64,000 nt of DNA from Candidatus Poribacteria bacterium. GTDB taxonomy: Bacteria > Poribacteria > WGA-4E > PCPOR2b. Position 1 is the first letter of the stretch. Every line of letters starts with the position of its first letter. The position numbers were made by a program, and so were the translations under genes. Below, piece after piece: positions 2,381-61,608 of the stretch. The notes under the pieces are model-generated. The model saw only the letters and a program-made list of their open reading frames with translations, was not told the DNA's origin and made no database searches. The stretch covers positions 7,256 through 71,255 of the forward strand of contig JAGWBT010000002.1 of assembly GCA_021295755.1 (NCBI GenBank), written 5' to 3'.

Positions 2381-2381
2381 G

Positions 2382-3900: not shown

Positions 3901-3993
3901 GTCAGACCACTTGGCTCCATTCGTGATCGGTAAAATTCTGGGTATTTTGTTGAGTATGATTTATTCAATTTAAGGGATATTAGTTCAGCGAAT

Positions 3994-33255: not shown

Positions 33256-33636
33256 TCAGCATTGAGGGTTTTGGCTATAGACCGAATCTGTCGAGTGAAC
33301 ACTGGCAAGTATACTGCTGGAGTTGATGGAGTTTCTACTCCGTGAACAAAAGCAGAACGCCTTGACTTTATGACAGAATTGTTCTATAATCTTGATATAA
33401 CCAAAGAATCCGACCCCATAAGGCGGGTATACATACCCAAATCCGAGGGCAAACAGTGTCCTTTGGGTATTCCTACAATTCGACATTTTCGATTCTTCAA
33501 TATCGAATATCTGAACACAACCAATGGGTTGATTGCCGCCAATCATCATTTATAAATCGGCGAACCGTGTGCGGTGAAAGTCGCACGCACGGTTCTGATA
33601 GGGAGAAAGATAAAACGATTTATCCTACCTATCCAT
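33256..33636 (+). mobile_element. group II intron remnant: degenerate intron-encoded RT fragment followed by canonical domain V and a domain VI-like hairpin
   Basis: The ORF fragment carries RT motif 0 (TGKYTAGVDGVSTP, then an in-frame TGA) and motif 1 (RRVYIPKSEGKQCPLGIPTIR), then diverges and stops. At 33562-33595, GAACCGTGTGCGGTGAAAGTCGCACGCACGGTTC folds as a 34-nt domain V: a 10-bp lower stem, a 2-nt AC bulge on the 3' strand, a 4-bp upper stem and a GAAA tetraloop. A domain VI-like hairpin with bulged A lies at 33597-33633. The 5' boundary was not identified. Confidence 0.55.
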
Positions 33637-37606: not shown

Positions 37607-39835
37607 ATGAGTTTCGATCTGCGTCAATTCCCTGAAATTAGAAGATACCTGTTTCTTTTAAGTTTTATATTCTTATTTCCGATCTGCATAAGCTCTGCCT
37701 CTGAACCGATAGAATATCGAGCCGAGGCGTATCGAACTTTTCAGAGCATTGAGATTGACGGGGATTTCAATGAAACCGATTGGCAGCATGCAAAACTGAT
37801 AAATCAGTTTGTCCAAACCGAACCTGATGAAGGCGTGCCGATAACTGAATCGACAGCGGTCCGCATCCTTTACGATGAGAAAAACATCTACTTCGGTTTT
37901 ACCTGTTCAAGTTCATGGCGTGATAGCATTGTTGCCAACGAAATGCGTCGAGATGCAGAAAATTTGCGTGAGAACGATAATGTTTTCATCCTTTTGGATA
38001 CCTACAACGATAAACGTAATGGGGTTTTCTTCCGCATCAATCCATTAGGTGCGATGCAGGATATAGCGTTGACAAACAGCGGAGATAGCCAGAACAGGAG
38101 TTGGGATGCCGTATGGGACTGTCGCTCCAAGATCAATGATGACCATTGGACAACGGAGATTGCTATTCCCTTTAGTCAACTCCGTTTCAACAGAAGCGAG
38201 TCGATGGTCTGGGGTATAAATTTTGGACGAACCATCCGGCAAAAGAATGAAGAGGCAACGTGGGTTCCCGTATCGAGACAGTATGGCAGTCGATCGAAAT
38301 ATCGAACCGCTAACCTCGGCAGCCTAGTTGGTTTGGCAGGCATAACTCCGTCTAGGCGGCTTGAAGTTCTGCCTTATGTTTTACCGGGGGTGAGCCGAAT
38401 CGAGGGCGAGGAGGGCACCGATGGGGTATTCGACATTGGATTAGATCTCAAGTACGGTTTAACCTCGAACCTTACCGCAGATCTGACTCTTAACACCGAC
38501 TTTGCGCAAGTTGAAGCGGATCAGGAACAGGTCAACTTGACGCGCTTCAGTTTGTATTTCCCGGAGAAGCGTCCCTTCTTCTTGGAAGGCGCCGGATTAT
38601 TTGATTTCGGTATTCCTCGCCCCAGTTTCTTTAGTCCTCCTCCGTTAATTCTCTTTTACAGTCGTCGCATCGGTCTTGAGGAAGGTTACGCCATTCCGAT
38701 TCTCGGTGGGGGCAAGATTACAGGCAAAATGGGACCATACGGCATTGGTCTGTTGAATGTGTTGACAGATGAGTTTCACACGGATCCATCGGTTACGGAT
38801 GAAGACGATATTGTTGATCTGTCTAGGACAAACTACTCCGTGCTGCGTGTGACGCGAGATCTCTTCAGTGGTTCTAGCATCGGGGCGATTGCGATTAATA
38901 AACAGGATACGGATACATACAACCGCGCGGGAGGATTGGACTTCGCATATCGTCCAAACGACAGTATTGATGTGCGTGGACTGTGGGCACGGACTTATGA
39001 GGAGGAGGTTTCTGGCAAGAATGATGCGATGTACTTTGGCGGTACTTGGCGAAACAGTCTACTTCGATTTAATGGAACATATACGTTCATCGGTGAGGAT
39101 TTCAACCCTGAGGTCGGATTCGTCCGTCGTCAGGGCAGCCGACGATTCCGTGGACAGATGCGTTTTACCCCTTGGCCCAGAAAATTCGGTGTTCGCCGCA
39201 TTTTCATGGGACCGGAGGTTGACTATATCCTCAACCAAGATGATGAACTGGAAACGCGGGAGTTTTCACTCACCAATTGGTTTCAACTTGAGCAGGGCAG
39301 TTGGATCAACGTTGAGATTCGACGAACCTCTGAATTTCTCGACGAGGATTTTGAAATCCGAGAGGGCGTTATCATACCAGTTGACGATTACAATTTAACT
39401 ACCCTCAGAACGATGATCGATACGGATGAAGGAAGGAAAATTTCGGGTCGATTCGGGGCAAATTACGGTACCTTTTTTAACGGTACAAATCGTGGGTTTG
39501 ATATCCAAGCGAACTTTAAACCGAGCGGCCGCCTCGCCTTTGAAACGCAATATCAATTTAACCGGGTGAATCTCCCGAGTGAAGATCCTTTCAATGTGAA
39601 TATTTTCGGGAGCCGTATTGTTTATTCTTTCACCACAACTCTTTTTGCGAAGTTGTTCGCCCAATGGAACAGCGATGATGAACTGATTTCCGCCAATTTC
39701 CTGCTGAACTACATCTACCGTCCCGGCAGCGATTTCTACCTCGTTTTCAATCGGATTTATGATAGTGGTAGCGCGAAAACGACACCTGGGGAATCTACGG
39801 TTGTTGCAAAGATGACTTATTGGTGGAATCCGTAA
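37607..39835 (+). CDS. DUF5916-like outer-membrane protein with N-terminal CBM9-like domain (paralog 1 of 4)
   Basis: 742 aa with a signal peptide. N-terminal EYRAEAYRTFQSIEIDGDFNETDWQHA...DTYNDKRNG resembles carbohydrate-binding family 9/DOMON-like domains. Conserved core LTADLTLNTDFAQVEADQEQVNLTRFSLYFPEKRPFFLEGAG, and a C-terminal TYWWNP. About 60-70% aa identity to the ORFs at 39892, 42270 and 48514. The family name is from memory. Confidence 0.75.
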   Translation: MSFDLRQFPEIRRYLFLLSFIFLFPICISSASEPIEYRAEAYRTFQSIEIDGDFNETDWQHAKLINQFVQTEPDEGVPITESTAVRILYDEKNIYFGFTCSSSWRDSIVANEMRRDAENLRENDNVFILLDTYNDKRNGVFFRINPLGAMQDIALTNSGDSQNRSWDAVWDCRSKINDDHWTTEIAIPFSQLRFNRSESMVWGINFGRTIRQKNEEATWVPVSRQYGSRSKYRTANLGSLVGLAGITPSRRLEVLPYVLPGVSRIEGEEGTDGVFDIGLDLKYGLTSNLTADLTLNTDFAQVEADQEQVNLTRFSLYFPEKRPFFLEGAGLFDFGIPRPSFFSPPPLILFYSRRIGLEEGYAIPILGGGKITGKMGPYGIGLLNVLTDEFHTDPSVTDEDDIVDLSRTNYSVLRVTRDLFSGSSIGAIAINKQDTDTYNRAGGLDFAYRPNDSIDVRGLWARTYEEEVSGKNDAMYFGGTWRNSLLRFNGTYTFIGEDFNPEVGFVRRQGSRRFRGQMRFTPWPRKFGVRRIFMGPEVDYILNQDDELETREFSLTNWFQLEQGSWINVEIRRTSEFLDEDFEIREGVIIPVDDYNLTTLRTMIDTDEGRKISGRFGANYGTFFNGTNRGFDIQANFKPSGRLAFETQYQFNRVNLPSEDPFNVNIFGSRIVYSFTTTLFAKLFAQWNSDDELISANFLLNYIYRPGSDFYLVFNRIYDSGSAKTTPGESTVVAKMTYWWNP

Positions 39836-39891
39836 CGCATGAAACATAGCACATTTTTAAATATTTGATTTTTTCGCAAAGGAAACTGTCT

Positions 39892-42129
39892 ATGATTTAT
39901 CATTTTAACAGAATACCTACAACGTCAAGGTGTGGAAAATCTTTTCTTATTTTGTCTATGTGCTGTCTGTTGTTTCCGTTCATTGTGAATGCAGATGCGG
40001 ACTCTATGGAATACCGCGCTGAAGCATATCGAACATATCAGAGCATTGAGATTGACGGAGAATTCAACGAGGAAGACTGGCAGAATGCAAAAACTATCAC
40101 TCGACTCATCCAATATGAACCTGTCGAGGGAGAGTTAATTTCGCAACCTACAGAGATACGCATTCTTTATGACGCGAAGGAAATCTACTTTGGATTTACC
40201 TGTTTTGACGACGATATTTCCAAAATGGTTGCCAATGAGATGCGCCGCGATGGCAGTGGTCAGGACGGATTGCGTGAAAATGACCATGTCTCTATCCTTC
40301 TGGATACCTATAACGATCGGCGCAATGGATTTTACTTCCGTGTCAATCCGCTAGGAGCAAAGGAAGACATCGCTTTAATAAACAGCGGAGAGAGTCGAAA
40401 TCAGGCTTGGGATGCGATCTGGGAATGTCGGACCAAAATCAATGATAACCATTGGACAGCAGAGATAGGTATTCCTTTCAGCCAACTTCGTTTCAGTAAG
40501 AGTGACGATATGACATGGGGGCTGAATTTGGGACGAAGCCTTATGCGCGACCAAGAGGACGCAACATGGGCACCGCTTTCCAAAGCGCATGGATTCTTTG
40601 CGAGATACCGCACTGATGTTATTGGTGATTTGGTCGGGTTGCAAGGGATTACTCCCCCTCGGAATCTGGAACTGCTGCCCTATGTCTTGCCGGGGGTGAA
40701 TCGTATTGAAGCCGAAAAGACAACTGATGGAGTATTCGACATCGGCTTGGACCTTAAGTACGGTGTGACCTCCAATCTGACAGCGGACCTGACGTTTAAC
40801 ACCGATTTTGCGCAAGTCGAGGCGGATCAGGAGCAGGTCAACCTCACCCGTTTCAGCCTGTTTTTCCCGGAGAAGCGTCCCTTCTTCCTAGAAGGTGCGG
40901 GGCTGTTTGATTTCGGCATTCCCCGCACTAGCTTCCGCCGTCCGCCGCCGCTGCTTCTGTTTTATAGCCGCCGCATCGGTCTTGAGGAGGGACGTGCCAT
41001 CCCGATTATCGGTGGGGGCAAGATTACAGGCAAAGCAGGGCCTTACGGCATCGGTATGCTGAATGTGTTCACGAATAAATTGCTTGATGAGACCGATCCT
41101 GAGGAGATTATTGATGTGCAGCGCACCAATTATTCCGTGTTGAGGTTGACGCGGGATGTTTTCAGTACCTCTCGGATTGGATTAATTGGCATCAACAAGC
41201 AAGATACTGACACATACAACCGGGCAAGCGGACTTGACTTCACATATCGTCCAACCGATAGCCTTGATGTACGTGGCCTCTGGGCTCGCACATTTGAAGC
41301 GGATGTCTCCGGTCAGAACAACGCTTTGTACCTCGGCAGCACTTGGCGAAACAGGGATCTTCGCTTGGAGGGTTCATATATGGACATCGGTGAGAACTTT
41401 AACCCCGAGGTCGGATTTATCCGGCGAGAGGGAATCCGCCGAATCAATAGTCAAATCCGTTATAGTCCCCGGCTCGGCAAATTTGGGATTCGCCAAATCT
41501 ATACAGGACCGGAGTTTGATTTTATCCTCAATCAAGACAACCAACTGGAAACTCAAGAAATCACATTGACCAACTATTTTCGGTTTGAAAGCGGTGCCTA
41601 CATTGGGTTTCTACCTAAACGAACCACTGAACACCTTGATGAGGATTTTGAAATCCGAGATGGGATTACTATCCCTCCGGGCGAATACAGCTTCACTGAA
41701 ATGATGATTAGAGGTTCCACCGATGATACGAAAGCCCTCGCAGGGCAGTATAGTGTGAATTTTGGTAACTTCTACAATGGAAGCAGGTGGGGATTTACCC
41801 TCGACGCGAGCTTCAAACCGAACGGGCGTTTGAATGTTGAACCTATATTTCAGTTTAACCGTGTTACGCTTCCCCAAGAGGCATTTAATGCAAGCATTTT
41901 TGGTGCCCGTGTCGGCTACTCCTTTTCGACAACGCTTTTTGCAAAGATATTCGCCCAATGGAGCAGCGACGATGACATAATCGCTACCAATGTTCTGCTG
42001 AATTACATCTACCGTCCTGGTAGTGATTTTTATCTCGTTTTCAACCAGATTTATAATACTGGCGGTACAAAAACAGCACTTGACGAATCCACAGTTGTTG
42101 CAAAAATGACTTACTGGTGGAACCCGTAA
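39892..42129 (+). CDS. DUF5916-like outer-membrane protein with N-terminal CBM9-like domain (paralog 2)
   Basis: The ATG at 39892 follows AAAGGAAA. Domain order and motifs match paralog 1 (EYRAEAYRTYQSIEIDGEFNEEDWQNA...TYWWNP). Confidence 0.75.
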   Translation: MIYHFNRIPTTSRCGKSFLILSMCCLLFPFIVNADADSMEYRAEAYRTYQSIEIDGEFNEEDWQNAKTITRLIQYEPVEGELISQPTEIRILYDAKEIYFGFTCFDDDISKMVANEMRRDGSGQDGLRENDHVSILLDTYNDRRNGFYFRVNPLGAKEDIALINSGESRNQAWDAIWECRTKINDNHWTAEIGIPFSQLRFSKSDDMTWGLNLGRSLMRDQEDATWAPLSKAHGFFARYRTDVIGDLVGLQGITPPRNLELLPYVLPGVNRIEAEKTTDGVFDIGLDLKYGVTSNLTADLTFNTDFAQVEADQEQVNLTRFSLFFPEKRPFFLEGAGLFDFGIPRTSFRRPPPLLLFYSRRIGLEEGRAIPIIGGGKITGKAGPYGIGMLNVFTNKLLDETDPEEIIDVQRTNYSVLRLTRDVFSTSRIGLIGINKQDTDTYNRASGLDFTYRPTDSLDVRGLWARTFEADVSGQNNALYLGSTWRNRDLRLEGSYMDIGENFNPEVGFIRREGIRRINSQIRYSPRLGKFGIRQIYTGPEFDFILNQDNQLETQEITLTNYFRFESGAYIGFLPKRTTEHLDEDFEIRDGITIPPGEYSFTEMMIRGSTDDTKALAGQYSVNFGNFYNGSRWGFTLDASFKPNGRLNVEPIFQFNRVTLPQEAFNASIFGARVGYSFSTTLFAKIFAQWSSDDDIIATNVLLNYIYRPGSDFYLVFNQIYNTGGTKTALDESTVVAKMTYWWNP

Positions 42130-42269
42130 ACTTGAAACGTAAAATGTGAAACGTATGATCAGTATACTGCATTCCCCCGATTCAATCGGGGAGACGACTG
42201 ATATACTCGCATTGCCACAGATCCTTACCTTAGAATCAATTCCGGAGCCATTTTGAAAGGAGACCGTTT

Positions 42270-44519
42270 GTGATTTATCACCTCAATTTTTGGTATCAGT
42301 TGTCAAGTGGTAGTATTCTGCGACATGGAAAATGTTTTTTTCTGTTAGCTATCTGCTATTTGGTATTTCCATTCGCTGTGGGTGCTGACCCTGGTCCCGT
42401 AGAGTACAAGATTGAAGCATACCGAACGTTTCAGAGCATTGAAGTTGATGGTGATTTCAATGAATCTGATTGGCAGCACGCGAGTCCGATTGATCGGTTT
42501 TTCCAAATTGAGCCCGATGAAGGCGAGTCGATAAGCGAACCGATGGAAGTCCGCATCCTGTACGATGACAAGAATATCTACTTCGGTTTTACCTGTTTTG
42601 AATCACAGATGTCAAAACTGGTTGCCAACGACATGCGTCATGACGCACAAGATCTACATGAAAATGACAATGTCTTTCTGATATTAGACACTTATAACGA
42701 TCAGCGCAACGGGTTTTCCTTCCGCATCAATCCGCTGGGGGCATACCAAGACAGAGCTGTAACGAATGGTGGAGACAGCTTGAATCGGAGTTGGGATGCG
42801 GTTGTCGCATGTCAGGCGAAGATCAATGGGGACCACTGGACAGCCGAACTCGGCATCCCGTTCAGCCAACTCCGTTTTGATAAAAGTGACAGGATGACTT
42901 GGGGGATGAATGTAGGACGGGGAGTTCGTAAGAACAATGAGGAAGCGATATGGGTGCCGGTGCCGAGACAGTATGGAGGGATGGCGAAATACCGCCTCGG
43001 CAACCTCGGCAGCCTTACTGGTTTAGAAGGGATTGCCCCATCTCGTCGCCTGGAACTGCTGCCTTATGTCTTGCCGGGGATGAGCCGTACCGAAGAAAAT
43101 GAGGACACCGATGGAGTATTTGATATCGGCTTGGACCTCAAGTACGGTATCAACTCTAATCTTACTGCGGATTTGACCTTTAACACCGACTTTGCCCAGG
43201 TTGAAGCTGATGAAGAACAGGTCAACCTCACCCGTTTTAGCCTATTCTTTCCTGAGAAGCGTCCCTTTTTCTTAGAAGGGGCGGGGTTATTTGATTTTGG
43301 TATTGGTCGCAGTAGTTTCCGCCGTCCGCCGCCGCTGCTTCTGTTTTATAGCCGCCGCATCGGTCTTGAGGAGGGACGCGCCATCCCGATTATTACAGGG
43401 GGTAAGATCACCGGCAAAATGGGACCTTACGGCGTCGGTATGCTGAATGTGTTGACAAATGAATTTCACGATGATACAGATCCGGAGGAAATTGTTGATG
43501 TGTCACGCACCAATTACTCCGTGTTGAGGTTGACGCGAGACCTGTTCAGCGGCTCACGTGTCGGATTAATCGGGATCAATAAGCAAGATGGAGATGCCTA
43601 CAATCGTGCTGGCGGATTCGATTTTTCATACCGTCCGGCAGACAATTTCGATGTGCGCGGACTGTGGGCGTATACTTCCGATTCGGATGAGGAAGATGGG
43701 AGCGATAATGCGTGGTATGTCGGCAGCACTTGGCGGAATGACTTACTTCGAGTAGGTGGTTCATACACGGACATCGGTGAGGACTTCAACCCTGAAGTTG
43801 GATACATCCGGCGGGAGGGCATGCGTCAAATCCGGAGTGACCTGCGTTTTACCCCTTGGCCCAGAAAGTTTGGGATTCGCCGCATCTGGACGGGTCCGGA
43901 ATTTGATCTTGTCCTCAATCGGGACGGTGACTTAGAGACCCGCTCCATCCGCTACAGCAACTGGTTTGAACTGGAAAGAGGTGGTCGCTTACAATTTGAG
44001 GTGCGGCAGACTGCTGAACACCTTGAGGAAGATTTTGAAATCCGAGATGATGTCATCATACCCATTGATGAGTATAGTTTTACATCAGCTAGGGCAGGGA
44101 TTCAGACCGATGAAAGTAAAATGCTTGCTGCGGAATTTGATGTGGATTTTGGTGAGTTCTACAATGGTAATAGGCGCGGCTTTGACATCGGGGCGACCTT
44201 CAAGCCGAGCGGACGTTTCGCCCTTGAATCCCAATATCAATTTAACCGGGTAACCCTCCCTGGGGAAGACCCCTTCAATGTAAATGTGTTTGGAGGTCGC
44301 TTCGCCTATTCCTTCTCGACCCAACTCTTTGCGAAACTGTTCGCCCAGTGGAACAGCGACGATAATGTGGTTTCCACCAACTTTCTGCTCAACTATATCT
44401 ATCGCCCCGGCAGTGACTTCTACCTTGTTTTTAACCAGATTTATGACGGCAACGGTGGAGGCGCCAATCTTGAGGAATCCACACTTGTTGGAAAGCTAAC
44501 GTATTGGTGGAATCCGTAA
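42270..44519 (+). CDS. DUF5916-like outer-membrane protein with N-terminal CBM9-like domain (paralog 3)
   Basis: GTG start after AAAGGAGA. EYKIEAYRTFQSIEVDGDFNESDWQHA...LTYWWNP. It shares a roughly 77-nt near-identical tract with paralog 2. Confidence 0.75.
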   Translation: MIYHLNFWYQLSSGSILRHGKCFFLLAICYLVFPFAVGADPGPVEYKIEAYRTFQSIEVDGDFNESDWQHASPIDRFFQIEPDEGESISEPMEVRILYDDKNIYFGFTCFESQMSKLVANDMRHDAQDLHENDNVFLILDTYNDQRNGFSFRINPLGAYQDRAVTNGGDSLNRSWDAVVACQAKINGDHWTAELGIPFSQLRFDKSDRMTWGMNVGRGVRKNNEEAIWVPVPRQYGGMAKYRLGNLGSLTGLEGIAPSRRLELLPYVLPGMSRTEENEDTDGVFDIGLDLKYGINSNLTADLTFNTDFAQVEADEEQVNLTRFSLFFPEKRPFFLEGAGLFDFGIGRSSFRRPPPLLLFYSRRIGLEEGRAIPIITGGKITGKMGPYGVGMLNVLTNEFHDDTDPEEIVDVSRTNYSVLRLTRDLFSGSRVGLIGINKQDGDAYNRAGGFDFSYRPADNFDVRGLWAYTSDSDEEDGSDNAWYVGSTWRNDLLRVGGSYTDIGEDFNPEVGYIRREGMRQIRSDLRFTPWPRKFGIRRIWTGPEFDLVLNRDGDLETRSIRYSNWFELERGGRLQFEVRQTAEHLEEDFEIRDDVIIPIDEYSFTSARAGIQTDESKMLAAEFDVDFGEFYNGNRRGFDIGATFKPSGRFALESQYQFNRVTLPGEDPFNVNVFGGRFAYSFSTQLFAKLFAQWNSDDNVVSTNFLLNYIYRPGSDFYLVFNQIYDGNGGGANLEESTLVGKLTYWWNP

Positions 44520-44582
44520 ATTGGTACATTAATGAACGGATGTACTAATGAACTAACATATTTCGAGAAAGGAGCATTACCT

Positions 44583-45518
44583 ATGAATCAAGAAACAGTT
44601 TGGTTACTTTCAGAAACGGGCATATTAGATTTCAACGGCGAACCGATTCACGATGCTCCATTTCAGCCTGCATCGGTCATTGCGGGAGATGTGGGGCAAG
44701 ATCGGTTATCTGTTATTGCCAACGACCATGAGGTTTGGACGTATGCTTCGGGGGTATGGGATCAGCAGGTTTCAACGGATATCACCCTGAACTGCGTGTG
44801 TTGGACGTCCGACGATCGGCTACTCGTGGGTACGGAGCGCGCTCGGCTCGCATGGGTTGCCGATGGCGAGTTGAATTTTATCGACGGTTTTGACGCTGTG
44901 CCGGAACGCAGGCTGTGGAAAACGCCGTGGGGTGGACCTCCGGATGTACGCTCTTTGGCTGTCTCCACAGACGGAACCATCTACGCGAACATTCATGTCG
45001 GTTGGGTTGTCCGCTCGCGTGACGGTGGAAAGACGTGGGAAAATCTTCAGGAAGGGTTGGAGATGGATGTGCATCAGGTCGCTACGCACCCAACCGATCC
45101 GGCAACCGTCTTCGCTGCGACCGCTCACGGGTTCTATCTCAGTAGAGATTATGGTGATACGTTTGCGCACCAGCGGAGTGGTATGCCCTACTATTATCAA
45201 CGGGCATGCGCTTGCTTTCCTGAAAGTGATGTATATCTAGTTTCCACCTCACGAGGTCCCCACAGCAGGGTAGATGCCCAACTTTATCGAAGCGATGACG
45301 CAGGCGAAAACTGGACGTTGGTCACTGGTCTACCGGAACAGATCGGTGAGAATATTGACACCTTTCAGATTATTACCTTTGGTAAGGCGAACGCGCTGGT
45401 TGTTGTGGACGACACCACGCTGTACCAGACCGACGACTACGGGCTAAATTGGCAAAAGGTAGCCGATTATCCGAGGTTGTTCGGTGGACTCGTCGTTCAA
45501 ATGCCGCAAGCGGCTTGA
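44583..45518 (+). CDS. BNR/Asp-box-like beta-propeller protein (Ycf48/sialidase-like fold)
   Basis: Degenerate Asp-box repeats (SRDGGKTW, SRDYGDTF, SDDAGENW, TDDYGLNW). The ATG at 44583 follows AAAGGAG. No signal peptide. Confidence 0.65.
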   Translation: MNQETVWLLSETGILDFNGEPIHDAPFQPASVIAGDVGQDRLSVIANDHEVWTYASGVWDQQVSTDITLNCVCWTSDDRLLVGTERARLAWVADGELNFIDGFDAVPERRLWKTPWGGPPDVRSLAVSTDGTIYANIHVGWVVRSRDGGKTWENLQEGLEMDVHQVATHPTDPATVFAATAHGFYLSRDYGDTFAHQRSGMPYYYQRACACFPESDVYLVSTSRGPHSRVDAQLYRSDDAGENWTLVTGLPEQIGENIDTFQIITFGKANALVVVDDTTLYQTDDYGLNWQKVADYPRLFGGLVVQMPQAA

Positions 45519-45577
45519 GATTTCGGTTTTCTTTTACTTAGCAGCTACAAATCTACCCGTAGGAGAAAGTAATACCA

Positions 45578-47887
45578 TTGGCATATCAAGAGATGTTAGA
45601 TACATTACCCACCTCAATAGAAACAGCTTTAAAGGCAGCGAACATTTCTTTAGACAAGGTAAGATTCGCCGCACAGAGTGATCTCAATCCCGACGGTCTG
45701 TTCGGTGAAAGCTGGTTCGTCCTGACCGATACAGAGATCTTGGCACTTGATGCGGGAGGCGTTGTTCTCCATCGCGTGCTATATAGCGAAGTGGTAGAAG
45801 TGCGTTCGGAAGCAGTTGTTGACGGAGGAATTCTCGTTCTGGAGATGATGGGAGATGCCCTGGATCTCATCCGTTACTCAAACGGTCTGATGCCGAAGTT
45901 TGGGTATATAGCGAAATTTCTCAGTGAAGAGATCGAGCACCGTCAAGGGAAACGCGACGAAGCACCGATGTGGGAGTACGAAGAGGAGCAGAAGTTCTGC
46001 AAGGCGTGTGGCTTGCCGCTTCCCGATGTGTTTTTGCCGTGTCCAGCGTGCACCAAGAAGCATCGTGTTATGTTGCGCATTCTCTCCTATCTCAAGCCAC
46101 ATAAAAAGCGCGCGGCTGTGGTGGTGTTGCTCATGCTTGTCTCAACACTGATTGCGCTCATGCCGCCCTATTTTACAAAGATTCTCATTGATGATGTGTT
46201 GAAGCTAAACGAAGACCTCGCAGCAGCGCAAGGTGCTGCAAAAACGGCGGTGAGTCAATTCTTTCGGTCGTTTGAGACAGCAGCACTTGCCTTGACGGTT
46301 GCCGTCGGTTGTCTCGTGGTAGCACATATCCTCACCCATATCCTCGATATTTTTCGTGGGCGTTTGGCTGCGTGGTTGACCTTCCGCATGATAGCAGACA
46401 TCCGTGACCAGATTTATGAGCGATTGCACGGGCTTTCGCTTCGGTTCTTCGATAAGCGCAAGACAGGGACCGTTATCTCCCATATCACAGAGGATAGTAC
46501 GCGCCTACAGTGGTTTCTGTTAGATGGGCTTCAGTTCCTCGTTATTGACCTGTTGATGCTTCTTGGCATTGGTGCTTTCCTATTTTCGATGAACTGGAGA
46601 TTGGCGTGCTTTATCCTAATTCCAATCCCGTTGGTAGTCCTTGGCGCGAGGTGGTTCTGGAAGAAGGTTCGTGGACTCTGGCATCGGGCGTGGCGGCGAA
46701 GATCGAAGATGTACGATATTGTGAACGACTCGGTCTCCGGTATCCGTGTTGTTCGGGCATTCGGTCAGCAGAAGAGTGAAGTTGGACGGTTTTCCTATAC
46801 GAACGAAGATGCCCGCAATTACGACACGGTTGCCGAAAAGGTTTGGGCAACCTATTATCCGTTGCTGCAGTTTGCTGTTCAGTTAGGAACGATTATCGTC
46901 TGGTATGCTGGAGGATTGCAGATTCTCATCGACGGAATGACGTTCGGTACGTTGATGGCGTTTCACTTTTATTTGGCGATGTTTTACGGACCGTTACGAC
47001 ATCTGAGTCCAATGGTTAACTGGGCGTCGCGGGCAATGACAGCAGCGGAACGGATCTTTGAGGTCATCGACTCTGAGCCAGAGCAATTAGATGACACTAG
47101 GCTCGTCTCGAAATCAAAACTCCAAGGAGAGGTCAAATTCCACAATATGACCTTCGGTTATGATTCGCATAAGCCTGTCCTCCGAGATATCAATCTCCAC
47201 GTCAAACCGGGTGAGATGATCGGCTTAGTTGGGCATTCTGGGGCAGGAAAATCGACACTAATTAATCTCATTTGCCGGTTTTACATGCCGGATTCAGGGA
47301 GTCTCACCATTGATGGTATAGATATAACGGAAATTCGCCTTGAGGACCTGCGGCAACAGATTGGTGTCGTGCTCCAAGAGCCGTACCTTTTCAATGGGAC
47401 CATTGCGGAGAACATCGCCTACGCAAAACCGGGCGCGGGGATGGAAGCAGTCATTACCGCCGCAAAAGCTGCCAACGCCCATGAGTTCATTGTGAAGTTT
47501 CCTGATGGATATGACACGGAGGTTGGTGAACGGGGTGGTAGGCTGTCCGGCGGAGAACGGCAGCGAATATCAATTGCACGGGCAATCCTACACAATCCGC
47601 GCATCCTGATTCTCGATGAAGCGACCTCGTCGGTTGACGTTCAGACGGAGCGCAAAATCCAGCAGGCGATTGATCGACTTGTGCAAAACCGTACCACCTT
47701 TGCCATTGCCCATCGGCTCTCCACCCTGCGGAACGCAGACCGCCTCTTTGTTATAGACAAGGGCCGAGGTGTCGAATGTGGGTCACATGAAGAATTGATG
47801 GAGAAGAAGGGAATTTACTACAACCTCGTCGAGACACAGCGGCAAGCTTCCGAACTTCGCGCAGAGGCACAGATTGTCAAGGGATAA
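45578..47887 (+). CDS. ABC transporter, fused permease/ATP-binding protein (exporter type) with ~170-aa N-terminal extension containing a zinc ribbon
   Basis: Six-TM exporter domain plus an NBD with Walker A GHSGAGKST, signature LSGGERQRISIAR and Walker B ILILDEATS. The N-terminal extension (aa 1-170) contains CKACG...CPAC. The TTG at 45578 or the ATG at 45593 could be the start. Confidence 0.85.
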   Translation: MAYQEMLDTLPTSIETALKAANISLDKVRFAAQSDLNPDGLFGESWFVLTDTEILALDAGGVVLHRVLYSEVVEVRSEAVVDGGILVLEMMGDALDLIRYSNGLMPKFGYIAKFLSEEIEHRQGKRDEAPMWEYEEEQKFCKACGLPLPDVFLPCPACTKKHRVMLRILSYLKPHKKRAAVVVLLMLVSTLIALMPPYFTKILIDDVLKLNEDLAAAQGAAKTAVSQFFRSFETAALALTVAVGCLVVAHILTHILDIFRGRLAAWLTFRMIADIRDQIYERLHGLSLRFFDKRKTGTVISHITEDSTRLQWFLLDGLQFLVIDLLMLLGIGAFLFSMNWRLACFILIPIPLVVLGARWFWKKVRGLWHRAWRRRSKMYDIVNDSVSGIRVVRAFGQQKSEVGRFSYTNEDARNYDTVAEKVWATYYPLLQFAVQLGTIIVWYAGGLQILIDGMTFGTLMAFHFYLAMFYGPLRHLSPMVNWASRAMTAAERIFEVIDSEPEQLDDTRLVSKSKLQGEVKFHNMTFGYDSHKPVLRDINLHVKPGEMIGLVGHSGAGKSTLINLICRFYMPDSGSLTIDGIDITEIRLEDLRQQIGVVLQEPYLFNGTIAENIAYAKPGAGMEAVITAAKAANAHEFIVKFPDGYDTEVGERGGRLSGGERQRISIARAILHNPRILILDEATSSVDVQTERKIQQAIDRLVQNRTTFAIAHRLSTLRNADRLFVIDKGRGVECGSHEELMEKKGIYYNLVETQRQASELRAEAQIVKG

Positions 47888-47889
47888 AC

Positions 47890-48465
47890 ATGAACACAGA
47901 AAAAGAAAAGATGTCTAAGGGTATCGCCGCCTTGGAATCGGGGCCTCCACTCCCACTCTCGCTTGACGATGATGATTTCACGCCGAGATATTTGGATCCG
48001 GAGAAGATACGCCTATTTCGGTCACCGATGGGAACTCCGCGTCTGGAGATCCTAGAAGAGGTCTGCTACACTCGTGTGGCGGTGCGCCGCATCCTCCCGT
48101 TGAGCGACCCCAATCGTTATATCTCGCTTGGGATTGGAGAGGAGGTAGAAATCGGTATCATTGAAGACCCATCACGACTCGACTCCGAAAGTCTCGAAAT
48201 CCTGCGCGAGGAGCTCGATAAACGATACTTCACACCTATCATACAGAAGGTTTACCGCGTCAAGGAGCGATTCGGCATCCATGACTGGGAGGTTGAAACA
48301 TCGCGTGGACGAATCACGTTCTCTGTGCAGGGGCTTCATCAGAACGTTAGACATTTTCCACCTGCGCGACTGCTTGTAACAGATGTCCGTGGGAATCGGT
48401 ACGATATTCCAGACTATCACAGACTCGATTCAAACAGTTTTAATCAAATTCAGCGACATCTGTAG
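47890..48465 (+). CDS. DUF1854 domain protein
   Basis: 191 aa starting 3 nt after the ABC transporter stop. The assignment to DUF1854, a family often encoded next to ABC transporters, is from memory and carries moderate confidence. Confidence 0.5.
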   Translation: MNTEKEKMSKGIAALESGPPLPLSLDDDDFTPRYLDPEKIRLFRSPMGTPRLEILEEVCYTRVAVRRILPLSDPNRYISLGIGEEVEIGIIEDPSRLDSESLEILREELDKRYFTPIIQKVYRVKERFGIHDWEVETSRGRITFSVQGLHQNVRHFPPARLLVTDVRGNRYDIPDYHRLDSNSFNQIQRHL

Positions 48466-48513
48466 GTTGGTCCAGTGATTACTAATTTGAACAATCAAGA
48501 CGGGAGACAAGCA

Positions 48514-50787
48514 ATGACTGCTTATTTTAGTCTTTGGAATCAACTTTCACTATGTAGAATTGCTCAAAATCGAGGATTATTTCCCGCGATAAGATTGGGA
48601 TTCAAAGCAATCTGTTTGACCATCTTTTTGTCATTTCCGCTAATTGTGAGCGCAGATCCCTCCCCGATAGAGTACAAAGCAGAGGCGTACCGGACCTTTC
48701 AAGCCATTGAGATTGATGGCGATCTTACTGAACCTGATTGGCAGAACGCCAAGCGCATTGGTCAGTTTGTCCAGATGGAGCCGGACGAGGGCAAGCCGAT
48801 GACGGAGGCAACAGAGGTTCGCATTCTTTATGATGACAAAAACATCTATTTTGGTTTTACCTGTTTTGACTCGGATATTTCTAAAGTGGCCGCCAACGAG
48901 ATGCGCCGCGACGGCAACCTATGGGACAACGACAATGTCTTTGTACTTTTAGATACCTATAACGACCAGCGGAGCGGGTTTTTCTTCCGTGTCAATCCAT
49001 TGGGGGCAATGGAAGATGTTGCTATAATGGACAATGGAGACAGCCGGAACGAAAACTGGGATGCAGTCTGGGACTGTCGCACAAAAGCTAATGAGAAGTA
49101 CTGGACAGCAGAGATTGGTATTCCGTTCAGTCAACTCCGTTTTGATCGTGGTGATGTAATGACATGGGGCATGAATATGGGACGGAGCCTCATGCGCAAC
49201 CAAGAAGAAGGGATGTGGGCACCGGTTTCCAGAGCACATGGTTGGCGAGCCAGATATCGCACTGCTAATATTGGACGTTTGGTAGGCTTAAAAGGAATTA
49301 CGCCCTCCCGGAATCTCGAGTTGTTGCCTTACGTTTTGCCGGGGGTGAGTCGAATCGAGGTAGATGACGATACGAATGGAGAGCTTGAACTCGGCCTTGA
49401 TGCTAAGTATGGGATTACCTCAAATCTTATCGCGGATCTCACCTTCAACACTGATTTCGCGCAGGTCGAAGCCGATGAGGAACAGGTTAACTTAACCCGT
49501 TTCAGCCTGTTCTTCCCGGAGAAGCGTCCTTTCTTCTTAGAAGGTGCCGGGCTGTTTGATTTCGGTATCCCCCGCACTAGTTTCCGCCGCCCACCGCCAC
49601 TACTCCTCTTTTATAGCCGTCGCATCGGTCTTGCGGAGGGACATGCTGTCCCGATTATCACTGGTGGCAAGATTACCGGTAAAATGGGACCTTACGGCAT
49701 CGGTCTATTAAATGTTTTTACGGATAAATTTCACACTGATGCCTCTGTTACTGACCCTGATGAAATCGTTGATGAGCCGCGTATGAACTACTCGGTATTG
49801 CGCATGAGGCGAGATCTCTTCAGCGGTTCGACTGTTGGATTGATTGCGGTCAATAAACAAAACGCTGACACATACAACCGCGCAGGTGGATTTGACGTTG
49901 CGTATCGTCCTTCCGATAATATCAACTTTCGTGGGCTATGGGCTCGCACGTTTGAAGAGGGCGTGTTCGATCAAAGGGATGCTTTGTACTTTGGGGGTGA
50001 TTGGCGGAATGAGAATTTACGCCTAGAGGGTTCATACATAGATATCGGCGAGAACTTTCAACCCGGAGTTGGATATGTCCGGCGGCAAGATGTCCGCCGC
50101 TTCCGCGGTGAAATGCGATTTACACCTATGCTTGCTAAATTTGGGATTCGTCAAATTTGGGCGGGCCCTGAAGTTGACTTCATCCTCAATCGAGATAATG
50201 AGCTAGCAACCCGAGAGTTTACATATATGAACTGGTTTGAGCTAGAAGGCGGAGGTTGGTTTGGTTTTCAGGCGCAGCGAACCTTTGAACGCCTCGACGA
50301 GGATTTTGAAATTCGAGATGACATCACGATTCCGATCGACGAATATCATTTCAATTCCTTCCGGGTTTCGATTAATACCGATGACTCACAGATGGTGTCT
50401 CTCCAATTAGGAACGAATTTTGGGGGGTTCTTCGATGGGGAAAGGGTCGGTTTTGATATCGGACCGGATTTCAAGCCAAATGGGCACTTCAGTCTTGAGC
50501 CGCGTTTCCAATTTAATCGGGTTACCCTTCCTGCGGGTTCATTCAATGCGAGCATTTTCGGTACGCGTGTAAGCTATTCCTTTTCCACAAGATTCTTTAC
50601 TAAACTGTTTGCCCAATGGAACAGCGATAGCGGTGAGATTTCCGCTAACTTTCTGCTTAACTACATCTACCGCCCCGGCAGCGACTTCTACCTTGTTTTC
50701 AATCAAATCTATGACGGCAGCGGCGCAGGTGCCAAGTTGGAGGAATCCACATTTGTCGGAAAGATGACTTATTGGTGGAACCCGTAA
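48514..50787 (+). CDS. DUF5916-like outer-membrane protein with N-terminal CBM9-like domain (paralog 4)
   Basis: The ATG at 48514 follows GGGAGA. EYKAEAYRTFQAIEIDGDLTEPDWQNA...MTYWWNP. A signal peptide is present. Confidence 0.75.
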   Translation: MTAYFSLWNQLSLCRIAQNRGLFPAIRLGFKAICLTIFLSFPLIVSADPSPIEYKAEAYRTFQAIEIDGDLTEPDWQNAKRIGQFVQMEPDEGKPMTEATEVRILYDDKNIYFGFTCFDSDISKVAANEMRRDGNLWDNDNVFVLLDTYNDQRSGFFFRVNPLGAMEDVAIMDNGDSRNENWDAVWDCRTKANEKYWTAEIGIPFSQLRFDRGDVMTWGMNMGRSLMRNQEEGMWAPVSRAHGWRARYRTANIGRLVGLKGITPSRNLELLPYVLPGVSRIEVDDDTNGELELGLDAKYGITSNLIADLTFNTDFAQVEADEEQVNLTRFSLFFPEKRPFFLEGAGLFDFGIPRTSFRRPPPLLLFYSRRIGLAEGHAVPIITGGKITGKMGPYGIGLLNVFTDKFHTDASVTDPDEIVDEPRMNYSVLRMRRDLFSGSTVGLIAVNKQNADTYNRAGGFDVAYRPSDNINFRGLWARTFEEGVFDQRDALYFGGDWRNENLRLEGSYIDIGENFQPGVGYVRRQDVRRFRGEMRFTPMLAKFGIRQIWAGPEVDFILNRDNELATREFTYMNWFELEGGGWFGFQAQRTFERLDEDFEIRDDITIPIDEYHFNSFRVSINTDDSQMVSLQLGTNFGGFFDGERVGFDIGPDFKPNGHFSLEPRFQFNRVTLPAGSFNASIFGTRVSYSFSTRFFTKLFAQWNSDSGEISANFLLNYIYRPGSDFYLVFNQIYDGSGAGAKLEESTFVGKMTYWWNP

Positions 50788-53294: not shown

Positions 53295-53678
53295 ATGAAG
53301 AACAGGTCTCGTTCTTTATTGCTTGCAGAGCAATATCTCGGTAAGGAGGTCTCAATTATTATGGACAGACCTCTCGGCAGCAACCATCCTAAACACGGTT
53401 TCGTCTATGAGGTCAATTACGGCTATGTTCCCGGAACACAATCCGCTGACGGTGAAGAATTAGATGCATATTATTTAGGGGTCAGCCGACCTCTACGTGT
53501 AGCAGAAGGTAGATGTATTGCCATTATCCATCGGTTGAACGACGACGATGACAAGTTAATTGTTGTTCCTGAAACCCACATAGATTTAACGGACGGCGAA
53601 ATCGCCAAAGCCGTCAACTTTCAAGAACAGTGGTTTGATTGTGAAATTCGTCGGACACGCGCTTCAAGTAACTGTTGA
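53295..53678 (+). CDS. short inorganic pyrophosphatase-like protein
   Basis: VNYGYVPGTQSADGEELDAYYLG and DKLIVVPE match the family I PPase core (NYGFIP…DGDPLDVLV…DDKIIAV). The protein is only 127 aa and lacks the usual N-terminal third. Confidence 0.45.
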   Translation: MKNRSRSLLLAEQYLGKEVSIIMDRPLGSNHPKHGFVYEVNYGYVPGTQSADGEELDAYYLGVSRPLRVAEGRCIAIIHRLNDDDDKLIVVPETHIDLTDGEIAKAVNFQEQWFDCEIRRTRASSNC

Positions 53679-53705
53679 CCAAGACAACAAATGGTAATAA
53701 AGTTA

Positions 53706-54149
53706 GGACTTACGCACATGGTCAAAAAATAGGTTATAATAACGCAAGGTGCTAGGACGGATCATTACATGATTTTTACACATTAGGACTTACGCACTTC
53801 AGAGTTTTGACCTGTAAGGGACCTGACAAATCCCTGACATTTGGCGAGGTTATGGTGCCATTTCAGTGAAAAACGGTTCATAAATATTGTGTATTTGGCA
53901 GTTCAAAAAGCCATCTACACGCACCTTCTGTTGCGTGGTAAAAATCTACAAACGCCCTGAAGCTAGGCCCCATCAGGGTTCAAAGAGACATCCACCAAAG
54001 ATGAACCCCCGATGGGAGGGTGAATTTTTTTCTGGGACCTAACAGGGCCCTGCCAAATTGCCGAATCGTGCCGGTGGGGCATTGAAACGGAACCGAGTAT
54101 CGGGACTAGCCGAAGGGGTTGGATTTTACCGTTCAACTGCGTAAGTCCT
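53706..54149. repeat. MITE-like intergenic repeat element, copy B, bounded by 13-bp terminal inverted repeats
   Basis: TTAGGACTTACGC at 53706-53718 and its exact reverse complement GCGTAAGTCCTAA at 54137-54149. An internal direct copy of the terminal motif lies at 53784-53799. Two blocks are homologous to 3576-3900. It is non-coding (no ORF longer than 60 aa). Confidence 0.5.
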
Positions 54150-54186
54150 AAAAGTAATTAGCATTGTTAGTTTGGATATCTACACA

Positions 54187-57819: not shown

Positions 57820-58238
57820 TGAATGAAGCGTGAAACGTAAGACGTGAGTGAGGGGATTCTGGAAGCTGAAGCAAATGGCTAAAACGGTTAGAAATATGGT
57901 AAAATTATAAAATCAAAGTTGCCGGCTGTCAAAACTTTTCTTGTCACAGGGTAAATTTCTCGCCAGCGGGTACGTGGGGAATTTCTATTGTCATAGATTT
58001 TAGAATTTGCGTCTCGTTACCTATTAACAAAAAATCACTTTAGGGGTAAGTCCTCATCCTTTAGGTTGGGGATACACCCATGCTTTAGCATAGTTTCTTT
58101 CAAGGCTTTAGCCTTGATTCCAATGGTAAAATGTGGTATACATGTGTTGTCTTTCGGTGGGAAGGTATCACGCCACCGCTCGGTGGTGCTTCCCACACCC
58201 TTTGATACAGGATATGAAAGACCGAAAGAACAATCCTC

Positions 58239-59388
58239 ATGTATACAACTAAGAAACTCAAAGTGTCACCGACCCCTGAATTGGATACGCTTGCCCATGA
58301 ATCAGGTTGTTGCTATTCAAAGATAGTTTCGCTGATTCACAAGGTCCGAAAGAAAAAAGGGTTTTGGCTATCTCAAGGAGCCGTCCAAAAGTATATGCGC
58401 TTGCGTGGATGCAATCTTCATTCACAGACAGTGCAAGCGATAATCCAATCCTATTTTGACTCACTCAAGAGTTACTTTCGTGCTGTCAAGAGTAATTGAG
58501 ATGCCAAACCACCGTTTCGGACTCGCCGTTTCTACAAGGTGCGTTGGATACAAAATGGTATTACCTTCATAGATGGTGTTATCCGACTGTCAAATGGTAA
58601 AGGTAATGCGGCTATCCCCCTCAAATCAGATGTAAAGCCAGTGTATGTAGAAGTACTTCCAACGGGGCAGTTACTACTTTTCATTGGTTTACAAAGCACA
58701 AACACCGCCCAAGCGTGAGACGGGTAAAGTGGTTGCTATAGACATGGGTGAAATCCACCCGATAGTTTCTCATGACGGCGACCACACCATAATCTACAAC
58801 GGGCGCGCTTTACGTGCTATTAAGCAATATCTGAACAAAGTGAAGACCATTTTCCAATCCAAAATGGACAAGTGCAAGAAACGGTCTAAACGTTGGTATC
58901 ATCTCAAGCGAGTTAAGCAGAAGATGTTAGCAAAATTGAATGCTCAAATCAATGATGCTGAACATAAAATCACGAGTCGATTCATATCTGACTGCATCAA
59001 GGCGAAGGCAGATACGATAGTGATGGAAGACCTAAATGGCATCCGTGACCAAGCGAAGTTTAGTAAGAAGGCTAACCAGAAGGTGCACCAGTGGGCGTTT
59101 GCCCGACTCCAATTCATGATATGCTACAAAGCAGAACTTGCAGGACTCAAAGTCCAGCTTGTATCTGAGGCATACACCTCTCAGACCTGTCCGCAGTGTG
59201 GCAATCGAAAGAAGCCAACCAGCCGGAACTATCAGTGCAATCACTGCGGCTTTGAATATCACCGAGATGGTGTAGGTGCAATCAACCTCTGGAATAAAGT
59301 ATCGGGATTCATACTGAGTCCCGTAGTTGGGGCGATGGCGTCCCCGATAGGTGTCCGGTTCAATCCACACCTATTTAAACTCGGCTAG
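58239..59388 (+). pseudogene. tnpB: disrupted IS200/IS605-family tnpB (IS1341-like, no tnpA seen)
   Basis: The N-terminal 86 codons (MYTTKKLKVSPTPELDTLAHESGCCYSKIV…) end in a stop at 58499. The C-terminal part resumes in another frame at 58684. RuvC-I (VAIDMGE), RuvC-II (IVMEDL), the zinc finger (CPQCGN…CNHCG) and RuvC-III (HRDGVGAINL) are intact, but the reading frame is broken between the halves. Confidence 0.7.
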
Positions 59389-59418
59389 CACAGCGTGTAA
59401 GAATCCCCTCCCCTCAGG

Positions 59419-61608
59419 GTGGGGGAGTACGTCAAAGAGTCTTCAGTCTCAATGATATGGATTACCGAAATAGTCTTAACAAAACTGAGTGCACTTCACG
59501 TGATATTCGGAGTGCGATGCTATCTTTCAGTATGTTTCATGTTATGCGTGACAACTACGATATATGGTGCTGAGGAGCAGGCGACAATAGGTGCCCGTGC
59601 CATCGGTATGGGAGGGGCATTCATCGGGGTTGCGGACGATGAAAACGCCGTGCGTCGAAACCCCGCCGGACTGCCCCGTTTGGATAGATATGCTGTAGGG
59701 TTTGAACAGACGCCCTCTGGGTTGTTCAAGGCATTGGAAACAAGCTATCTCAGCGCGGTTTTGCCAACCTCCGAGAAGATGGCGCTCGGCATTGATTGGC
59801 TGCAGGTTGGTATTGAAGACGAAGAGCTTGATTCAAGTCGTAGCAGCTTCAACTTCGCTTATAGTTATGCTCCCTTGTCTCAACTATCCCTTGGGGCAAA
59901 TCTAAAATACTTTACGTGGTCAATTGCACTGGATGGTCGATCAAGAGGGGCAGCAACAGGTTGGGGCACGGATGTTGGTCTTCTGTACCAGCCGCACCCC
60001 CGCTGGAAGTTGGGGATACTTGCGCAAGATTTTATCGGTTTTGGATCTAGGGAAGGATTGAGCTACGGCACTTGGATACGTCACGATTCAGATGTCAGCG
60101 AAAAGGTCTTTCCAACTGCATACAAATTTGGTATCGCATATCGTCCCGTTTCAGATTGGCTAATCTCGGCAGATCTGACAGACCGGTTGCAGCTCGGCAC
60201 AGAATTTGGGCCGACTCAAAATTTTGCCCTCCGTGCAGGATTCCAGAAAGATTTGTATACATCGGAGCCGCCGACCTATTCGATAGGCGGAAGCATAAGA
60301 TATAGATGGATGGATTTTAACGTTGCGTATCTTCTCCCTCCGACGTTGCCACCAACTGCCTATGTTGGGCTTTCACTCAGCTTCGATTTTCGGAAGTTGC
60401 CGGTGCTCATTGAGGATGTTCGCATAAGAGATCTCTATCCGGTTCTTCGTCGGTATTATGCTACATCGAATCGAGATCTAGAGAAGGAGATCTTGGATAG
60501 TGCTACGCCGCTCGTAATTACAGAGGCGGATCGAGAGTATTACTATCCACTTGAGAGAGCGAATCAGATTGGAAGGATTTGGCTCAAAAACGAGAGCAAC
60601 AAAGAGATAACCGTTCATATCAAACTCTTTATTCCTGAATTTGTCAGCAAAAACGGCACGGAAGTTGCTTCTGTTATTGAAATGCAGCCGTTAGAACGCG
60701 CTTCGGTGCCAATACAACAACTGGTCTTAACACCGAAGGCGCTGCAATTGTCGCAAAATCAACCTGTCGAGGCACAGATTCAAGTGATTGAGAGCGGTGG
60801 CTCCGCCTACCGAACTTTTCCTGTAACATTTTTGTTACACGATAATCATTCAATCCAGTTGGATGATGTTGCGAAACTTGCTTGTTTCATTTCCTCGGAA
60901 AGTTCGGCGGCGGATTCGGCAATTGGTGCGTTCATCAATCAGGTGCGTACTGCATTTCAGACGGAGATGGATACTGTGGATATGCCAGAGAATTTGTATG
61001 TCGCCATGTTGTTATTTAATGTTCTGCACGGTGTATCGTATGCGCGGGATCCAAATATACCACGGCAGAGGGGGACAATTGATGAAATTAAGTATCCCCA
61101 TGAAATGCTGGAGAGCCTCATGGGGCAGCACTCAGGAGATGACGATAAATCGACCTTTGGCGACTGTGATGACAGCACAGTCCTTTACTGCTCTCTGCTT
61201 GAATCAGTTGGCATCAAAACAGCACTCATTCAATTACAAAGTCATGTGTTGATGGCATTCAATCTAGGCAATATTTCTGTTAAACAAGCGCAGGAGATAG
61301 GCTTGCCCAACGATTACTACGAGACAGTCAACGGGCAGGCTTGGATTCCGATTGAGACAACCCTTATCAACAAAGGCTTTGCCGCTGCATGGCAGGAAGG
61401 GGGTCGATCGCTCCAAGCGGTAAATATCCGGGCTGAAACTGTTGAGGATGCCTGGGAAAAATATGGTGAGAGTTCCTTGCCGGGAAAACCGATCCAGTTT
61501 TCTATTCCAAAAGACCTCACCCAAAAACGGATCGATGCGGACCTCGCCACTCCATGGCTGATGGAATTTTTGAACGCACTCTCCGACGTTAGTCCATTAG
61601 TAGATTAG
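59419..61608 (+). CDS. outer-membrane FadL/PorV-like beta-barrel fused to C-terminal transglutaminase-like cysteine-protease domain
   Basis: N-terminal GARAIGMGGAFIGVADDENAVRRNPAGL resembles the FadL/PorV barrel N-terminal motif. C-terminal GDCDDSTVLYCSLLESVGIKTALIQLQSHVLMAF carries the transglutaminase-like Cys/His core. The true start is uncertain (possibly the GTG near 59509). Confidence 0.65.
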   Translation: MGEYVKESSVSMIWITEIVLTKLSALHVIFGVRCYLSVCFMLCVTTTIYGAEEQATIGARAIGMGGAFIGVADDENAVRRNPAGLPRLDRYAVGFEQTPSGLFKALETSYLSAVLPTSEKMALGIDWLQVGIEDEELDSSRSSFNFAYSYAPLSQLSLGANLKYFTWSIALDGRSRGAATGWGTDVGLLYQPHPRWKLGILAQDFIGFGSREGLSYGTWIRHDSDVSEKVFPTAYKFGIAYRPVSDWLISADLTDRLQLGTEFGPTQNFALRAGFQKDLYTSEPPTYSIGGSIRYRWMDFNVAYLLPPTLPPTAYVGLSLSFDFRKLPVLIEDVRIRDLYPVLRRYYATSNRDLEKEILDSATPLVITEADREYYYPLERANQIGRIWLKNESNKEITVHIKLFIPEFVSKNGTEVASVIEMQPLERASVPIQQLVLTPKALQLSQNQPVEAQIQVIESGGSAYRTFPVTFLLHDNHSIQLDDVAKLACFISSESSAADSAIGAFINQVRTAFQTEMDTVDMPENLYVAMLLFNVLHGVSYARDPNIPRQRGTIDEIKYPHEMLESLMGQHSGDDDKSTFGDCDDSTVLYCSLLESVGIKTALIQLQSHVLMAFNLGNISVKQAQEIGLPNDYYETVNGQAWIPIETTLINKGFAAAWQEGGRSLQAVNIRAETVEDAWEKYGESSLPGKPIQFSIPKDLTQKRIDADLATPWLMEFLNALSDVSPLVD

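Follow-up and report, generated by a model that had tools for sequence, protein, structure and literature searches.

A 447-bp insertion in a Candidatus Poribacteria genome is very probably a MITE of the IS701 family

The DNA analysed here (the window) is a stretch of 64,000 nucleotides from a Candidatus Poribacteria genome. It carries at positions 53704 to 54150 of the + strand a complete non-autonomous element (MITE) of 447 bp, which we assign with high confidence to the ISMesi2-like clade of the IS701 family. The element was delimited by its terminal repeats, by a target-site duplication and by comparison with empty sites, and is devoid of any transposase remnant; its orientation (+) is that of an IS read from the left to the right end. 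An earlier note, made from the sequence of the window, had pointed to a MITE-like segment at 53706-54149. The features of this segment were confirmed, while its coordinates were found to lie about 1 to 3 nucleotides off the actual ends. The proposal of a MITE family is likewise supported by dispersed copies, by a 5-bp duplication together with empty sites, and by a cognate IS701-family transposase encoded between the same termini.

The element is bounded by 13-bp inverted repeats, which are perfect as had been claimed. The left repeat TAGGACTTACGCA (53704-53716, + strand) was defined by motif search and by comparison with IS termini, and the right repeat (54138-54150, − strand), also recovered by motif search, reads TGCGTAAGTCCTA on the + strand. 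The left repeat shows no more than one mismatch to the IS701-family termini of the Poribacteria loci L019 and L033-L035, of ISMesi2 and of ISPlag1. Exact matches to the motif TTAGGACTTACGC are found on the + strand at 53703-53715 and at 53783-53795, the latter being the internal copy noticed earlier at 53784, and a match on the opposite strand is located at 54139-54151. In these matches, the terminal T and A stem from the duplicated target and thus fall outside the element proper. When up to two mismatches were allowed, the 64-kb window contained six matches to this motif against 0.94 expected, and none of 100 shuffled sequences gave six or more. The segment had also been described as free of open reading frames. 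It does contain two short ORFs (51 and 57 aa), yet the absence of transposase coding sequence holds, as tblastn with the family transposases on both elements of the window revealed neither similarity nor a transposase remnant. No autonomous copy and no intact transposase of the family were found within the 64-kb window.

The target-site duplication was looked for on both sides and is the pentamer AAAGT, at 53699-53703 on the left and at 54151-54155 on the right. Both copies were delimited by comparison with four Poribacteria loci (L029-L032), which were collected through their pyrophosphatase orthologues (83-89% identity). The gene order DUF5916 – WD40 – pyrophosphatase – Reg_prop protein is kept in all four of them, and all four are empty: the spacer between the pyrophosphatase and Reg_prop genes measures 56 nucleotides, as compared to 508 nucleotides in the lineage of the window. 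The filled site reads GGTAAT AAAGT (TAGGAC...447 bp...GTCCTA) AAAGT AATTAGC, and the empty site of L029 reads GGTAAT-AAAGT-AATTAGC, with AAAGT present once. Because syntenic genomes have an empty site with a 56-nucleotide spacer and a single AAAGT, the 447-bp element is an insertion, and the comparison of filled and empty sites therefore sets its limits at 53704-54150, with 13-bp repeats and a 5-bp duplication. The element is present on all contigs that carry the identical pyrophosphatase gene, six contigs at the strain level. The insertion occurred after the lineage of the window split from those of L029-L032. Elsewhere in the window, a cluster of four paralogous genes for DUF5916/CBM9-like proteins of 742 to 770 aa was also observed at 37607-50787, all on one strand and with 65-80% DNA identity.

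The duplication also bears on another origin, namely that the element is a hairpin-ended derivative of the IS200/IS605 type, mobilised by or linked to a TnpB element located 4 kb downstream. A decayed TnpB ORF is indeed found at 58684-59388, and the terminal motif is matched with two mismatches at 58044-58056. However, IS200/IS605 elements have neither terminal inverted repeats nor a target duplication; they carry subterminal hairpins and insert next to a fixed short motif, whereas the 447-bp element is bounded by inverted repeats and by a 5-bp duplication whose sequence varies. The match at 58044 is no better than chance (0.94 expected) and was dismissed as a common end; the TnpB element constitutes an insertion in its own right, 1406 bp long, with boundaries at 58028-59433. 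The link is thus refuted by the duplication, the terminal repeats and the IS701-type cognate elements, and we consider it next to impossible. The TnpB ORF itself matches the NCBIfam model guided_TnpB over profile positions 187-389 only. The orthologous loci L029-L031 also lack the 1406-bp insertion, so that two mobile elements have inserted in a lineage-specific manner, one on either side of the Reg_prop gene.

The IS701-type MITE of the window belongs to a dispersed family. When one genome of each species was searched for exact matches to AAATAGGTTATAATAACGCAAG, a 22-mer of its conserved block, 15 loci were returned, all in Candidatus Poribacteria MAGs, distributed over 8 genomes with at most five copies per genome; further copies of the element thus exist, and the window itself holds two copies of the family. 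In every copy, the conserved sequence starts abruptly at TAGGA(C/G)TTACGCA. The 13-mer TAGGACTTACGCA was matched 35 times, with up to two mismatches, in 184 kb of Poribacteria DNA, and the sequences adjoining it fall into consistent types, several of them 'left' and one 'right' (...GCAGTTGAA). Two further complete copies, which reside in one genome, are flanked by 5-bp duplications of their own, AAAAC at L025 and ACCTT at L027. No recognisable duplication surrounds the copy at L028 or the old site shared by L014, L016 and L020. As its site is common to L014 and L016, the MITE copy at L020 predates the split of three species-level genomes. The copy at L020 harbours in turn a nested IS630-family IS (1640-2914; two ORFs, TA duplication, repeats AGTGATTTCAG). 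At L019 (1768-3831), two elements of 129 and 496 bp with IS701-type MITE termini flank a gene for an APH-like kinase; both outer flanks read TTCCA, and this arrangement of about 2.06 kb may be a MITE-based composite transposon.

The second copy of the window lies near purN, at 3575-3925 (+ strand, 351 bp), and was defined by alignments and by a search for termini. It comprises a left repeat TAGGAGTTACGCA (3575-3587), the hexamer TATAAT (3606-3611) and an IS982-type repeat (3612-3626). The earlier note had described a partial copy about 50 kb away that shares two blocks of roughly 75-90% identity, and both blocks were retrieved: 62 nucleotides (3572-3633 versus 53701-53762) are 89% identical, and 50 nucleotides (3832-3881 versus 54021-54070) are 74% identical. 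The latter block (repeat family D13; + strand, …ACCT..CAG.GCCCTGCCAAA..GC.GAATCGTG) is conserved in 10 copies of the family. The purN copy aligns with the 447-bp element over its whole length, with a mean column identity of 74%, and is 88.5% identical to L022 over 3575-3925; homology to the members of the family ends at 3925. A right terminal repeat was looked for at this copy and none was found. The purN copy is a dead fragment that has lost its right end, and because this end is missing it cannot move. As a candidate for the empty site, L018 was rejected as an orthologue of the purN locus, its matches being to dispersed repeats only. Directly upstream of the purN copy, positions 3498-3573 are occupied by a different dispersed repeat (…aatccgtgtaatccctgaatccgcgataatcagcgattcagac…), which occurs several times in L018 and L024 and also inside the composite elements of L022, L025 and L027. 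A unit of about 31 nucleotides (AAACCTTAATCGATGCGAATATGGCAGGTCAGC), present in one to three tandem copies, was observed at 3650-3720 of the window and in the class 1 interiors of L014, L024, L025 and L027, where TGGCAGG has an inverted counterpart, CCTGCCA, towards the right side; these units could be protein-binding repeats or simply a minisatellite. The window also contains at 2359-2385 (+ strand) a short remnant of IS701-type termini, GAGGACTTACGCAGTT-tca-TAAGTCC, which shows one mismatch to the repeat followed by the extension GTT of the right-end type. This remnant forms a hairpin and overlaps the 3′ end of a beta-lactamase-family ORF (1352-2380), to which it supplies the last codons and the stop.

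The cognate transposase was found in other Poribacteria. Searches with pieces of the transposase disclosed three IS copies, at L033, L034 and L035, of which L033 and L035 are decayed; the intact IS of L034 was reached with the N-terminal half of the transposase from L033. This IS (1371-2409, 1039 bp) has the termini TAGGAGTTACGCA and TGCGTAACTCCTA, a TATAT duplication and an ORF of 329 aa, whose product (P0150) scored 367.7 bits against the IS701-family model NF049921 (transpos_IS701_2), for a cut-off of 250. Its terminus is that of the MITE with a single mismatch, a G instead of a C at position 6. Protein P0134 obtained 320 bits with the same model, and the cognate transposases also match the Pfam families DDE_5 and DDE_Tnp_1. 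At L019 (6496-7586), 1091 bp between 13-mer termini represent a decayed IS in which the IS701-family transposase is split into two ORFs (NF049921, E values of 3e-45 and 3e-43; Pfam DDE_Tnp_1). Elsewhere in L019, the conserved block is succeeded by a ribosome-binding site and by what is left of an IS701-family transposase after internal deletion; a protein search with this 78-aa remnant yielded only fragments of 66 to 132 aa. Both ends of the MITE resemble those of the IS. The first 37 nucleotides (53704-53740, + strand), which include TATAAT at 53735-53740, correspond to an IS701-type left end and are 76-84% identical to their counterparts at L033-L035 (76-89% over the Poribacteria IS left ends as a whole); the last 30 nucleotides or so match the right ends of these IS copies and ISMesi2 at 68-77% identity. 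The MITEs and the IS of L034 have duplications of 5 bp, as compared to direct repeats of 8 bp (L033, 1478-3398), 6 bp (L035, 703-1689) and 7 bp (L156, 111-1202) at other full-length IS copies. Either the length of the duplication varies or some of these matches extend by chance.

The same termini are found well beyond the Poribacteria. A tblastn search of plasmids with the Poribacteria transposase gave matches of 62% identity in cyanobacteria and of 53% in Thermaceae, the latter annotated as 'IS701-like element ISMesi2 family transposase'; Acinetobacter records are among the matches below 60% identity. ISMesi2, as annotated in RefSeq on plasmid pMESIL01 of Allomeiothermus silvanus, carries TAGGAGTTACGCA as its left terminus; its right terminus, TAGGACTTACGCA, is identical to the 13-bp repeat of the MITE. 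Its transposase is about 53% identical to the Poribacteria enzyme, and its length of 1092 bp is close to that of the Poribacteria IS copies (1039-1091 bp). ISMesi2 is, however, autonomous and encodes its transposase, whereas the MITE is a non-coding element of 447 bp with a mosaic interior, and the ISMesi2 copy that was examined is flanked by a repeat of 7 bp instead of 5 bp. A Gloeocapsa IS copy is bounded by CAGGAGTTACGCA and by an ATGCT duplication. In a text search of the literature for the terminal sequence, ISPlag1 was the sole match. This IS701-group element of Planktothrix is 1306 bp long and has a 29-bp terminal repeat beginning with CAGGACTTACGCA... / CAGGACTTACGCAAGC...; remnants of 197 bp retain its ends only (PMC2464740). 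ISPlag1 and the MITE share the core of the terminal repeat and the existence of short end-only derivatives, but ISPlag1 has a cyanobacterial host and its termini diverge from those of the MITE past the first 13 nucleotides. ISAba11, an IS701-family element of Acinetobacter of about 1.1 kb, produces a characteristic 5-bp duplication (PMC7760358, PMC7885321). This is also the duplication length of the MITE.

The termini are also widespread in JGI metagenomes, in which TAGGACTTACGCAGTTGAA was found on at least 120 contigs. Among the contigs listed, 66 pairs of termini were delimited, mostly bounding elements of 72, 104 or 117 bp, and half of them (33 of 66) are flanked by duplications of exactly 5 bp, as compared to about 1% in a control with shuffled partners. 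The duplicated targets of these pairs show a weak A...T preference, into which AAAGT fits, and several pairs of 1.04 to 1.09 kb encode full-length homologues of the Poribacteria transposase (51-60% identity). Bacterial MITEs such as MITEAba12 and Nezha are likewise small and non-coding, and their repeats and duplication length match those of a resident IS; filled and empty sites show their mobility, they can be part of composite transposons, and they may carry promoters (PMC6382973, PMC3184786). Their parents belong to other IS families (ISAba12 and ISNpu3-like), whereas the parent of the MITE of the window is of the IS701 family. Furthermore, MITEAba12 and Nezha are only 113 to 170 bp long; the MITE described here is larger and contains the terminus of a nested second element.

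This nested terminus, AACGCAAGGTGCTAG (53741-53755, + strand), immediately follows the 37 nucleotides of the IS701 left end and belongs to an IS982-type family, as judged from inverted pairs at other loci. This terminal repeat makes up the latter half of the conserved block, AACGCAAG(T/G)TGCTAG, and forms inverted pairs in L017, L021, L025, L027 and L034. At L021, the repeats AACGCAAGTTGCTAG bound an IS982-family IS of 924 bp (6105-7028), the transposase of which scored 167 bits with NF033520 (cut-off 130); the family of this IS is the source of the second half of the block. The block shared by the two copies of the window is thus a 37-nucleotide IS701 left end fused to an IS982-type terminal repeat. 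At L025 and L027, the IS982-type element sits inside an IS701 left end with ATAAT on both flanks, and the IS sequence resumes behind it with the start of the transposase (…GGGGTTATGAACCC…). The junction 22-mer AAATAGGTTATAATAACGCAAG had no match in the JGI metagenomes, so that the chimeric subfamily is seen in Poribacteria MAGs only. The interior of the 447-bp element is mosaic, with repeats that have been nested or rearranged. A second IS701-type terminal repeat, of the 'L2' left-end type, lies on the + strand at 53784-53796, in an arrangement also seen in L016 and L020, and the sequence and predicted folds indicate a long hairpin at 53969-54016 (+ strand), with arms of about 14 bp (CCCATCAGGGTTCA ... 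TGAACCCCCGATGGG). The architecture of the element of the window is common to L016 and L020, and that of the purN copy to L022, L024, L025, L027 and L028.

From these arrangements we propose how the family may have arisen. An IS982-type MITE would have landed in an IS701 copy between the −10-like box and the ATG, duplicating ATAAT and separating the transposase gene from the promoter presumed to drive it. Later deletions and nesting, including the acquisition of the internal terminus at 53784, may then have produced non-autonomous units with two usable IS701 ends; the order of these events is suggested by few copies. The interior of the 447-bp element would not be a simple deletion derivative. 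The element probably owes its movement to the DDE transposase encoded by such an IS, acting in trans; after binding to both termini, this enzyme would excise or copy the intervening DNA and integrate it at a target cut with a 5-bp stagger.

The alternative raised by the earlier note, a structured RNA or a regulatory region (a shared operator) used twice, was also considered. In its favour, the sequence folds better than its shuffled versions, with paired termini and z scores of −3.7 (RNA) and −3.8 (DNA), and several blocks are conserved between copies. In its RNA form, a conserved non-coding RNA or riboswitch-like leader would occur at two loci, with the terminal repeat as its closing helix. 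The scan of the whole window at the gathering threshold and a permissive search of both copies at E values up to 10 gave no Rfam match to the element. In an RNAalifold analysis of 10 copies, the covariation term was +0.08 and one of 36 pairs was compensatory; the internal hairpin at 53969-54016 shows no covariation supporting an RNA either. Moreover, the termini are those of an IS that encodes a transposase, the duplication and the empty sites show that the whole unit was inserted, and the purN copy has no 3′ partner for the supposed closing helix. Folding in excess of shuffled sequences is what a MITE with paired termini and internal hairpins would show. The alternative therefore received no support; the structured-RNA reading is largely refuted and appears very improbable. 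Elsewhere in the window, the Rfam group II intron model RF00029 matched positions 33560-33628 (59 bits, E 4e-9); upstream of this match, no reverse-transcriptase ORF is evidently intact.

The earlier note had drawn attention to a conserved block with a TATAAT-like hexamer, and had suggested an outward promoter. The block with its TATAAT is present in both copies, but it is the chimera of an IS701 left end and an IS982-type terminus described above. In the parent IS copies, TATAAT is located 7 nucleotides before the ATG of the transposase, and we therefore interpret the hexamer as the −10-like box of the parent transposase gene. This box faces inward from the left end, and the sigma-70 scan revealed no −35 partner for it; an outward promoter is not supported. 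In the same scan, the TATAAT was not called as a promoter, and no terminator was predicted on the + strand of the element.

A role in the expression of neighbouring genes is nevertheless worth weighing. The MITE or its chimeric left-end module might have been recruited as a portable promoter, or as a long 5′ leader, for the gene downstream, that is, for the 1210-aa Reg_prop protein at the 447-bp element and for purN at the purN copy. At 13 of 14 independent sites of the family, the element has the orientation of the next downstream gene (two-sided binomial, about 0.002), although this bias could also reflect a bias of insertion or replication, or selection against antisense insertions. The 447-bp element ends 36 nucleotides upstream of the start codon of Reg_prop, and its insertion point coincides with the 3′ edge of a host sequence resembling a promoter, TTGACC-17-TAAAGT (53675-53703); however, L030-L032, which have the empty site, do not conserve the −10-like TAAAGT of this sequence. 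The position of TATAAT, 7 nucleotides from the transposase start in the parent IS, is consistent with co-option, and promoters borne by MITEs are documented, for instance in MITEAba12 (PMC6382973). Against this stand the missing −35 partner in the sigma-70 scan and the way in which the copies were gathered, with a 22-mer that contains TATAAT, so that the conservation of this hexamer is biased. On sequence grounds, we hold such a co-option to be unlikely, though a good deal less remote than a structured RNA. Slightly more doubtful still is the specific form in which the chimeric module, an IS701 −10-like box joined to an IS982-type terminus and carried by the MITE, would have been domesticated as a mobile promoter or 5′-leader cassette. 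If true, this domestication would explain the co-orientation at 13 of 14 sites and the position just upstream of start codons.

The IS701-type MITE represents a well-known kind of mobile DNA and leaves the current understanding of transposons unchanged. Candidatus Poribacteria are uncultivated sponge symbionts, and our literature search found no paper describing MITEs in them; the present element provides this group with a fully documented MITE, for which termini, target duplication, empty site and parent IS are all at hand. The sequence TAGGACTTACGCA together with a 5-bp duplication gives a simple signature to mask or annotate a metagenome-wide repeat family (at least 120 contigs) that breaks assemblies, and the insertion at 53704-54150 is a lineage marker that separates close lineages of Poribacteria. 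Finally, the nested IS701/IS982 junction illustrates how a non-autonomous family can arise from an IS through a single insertion.
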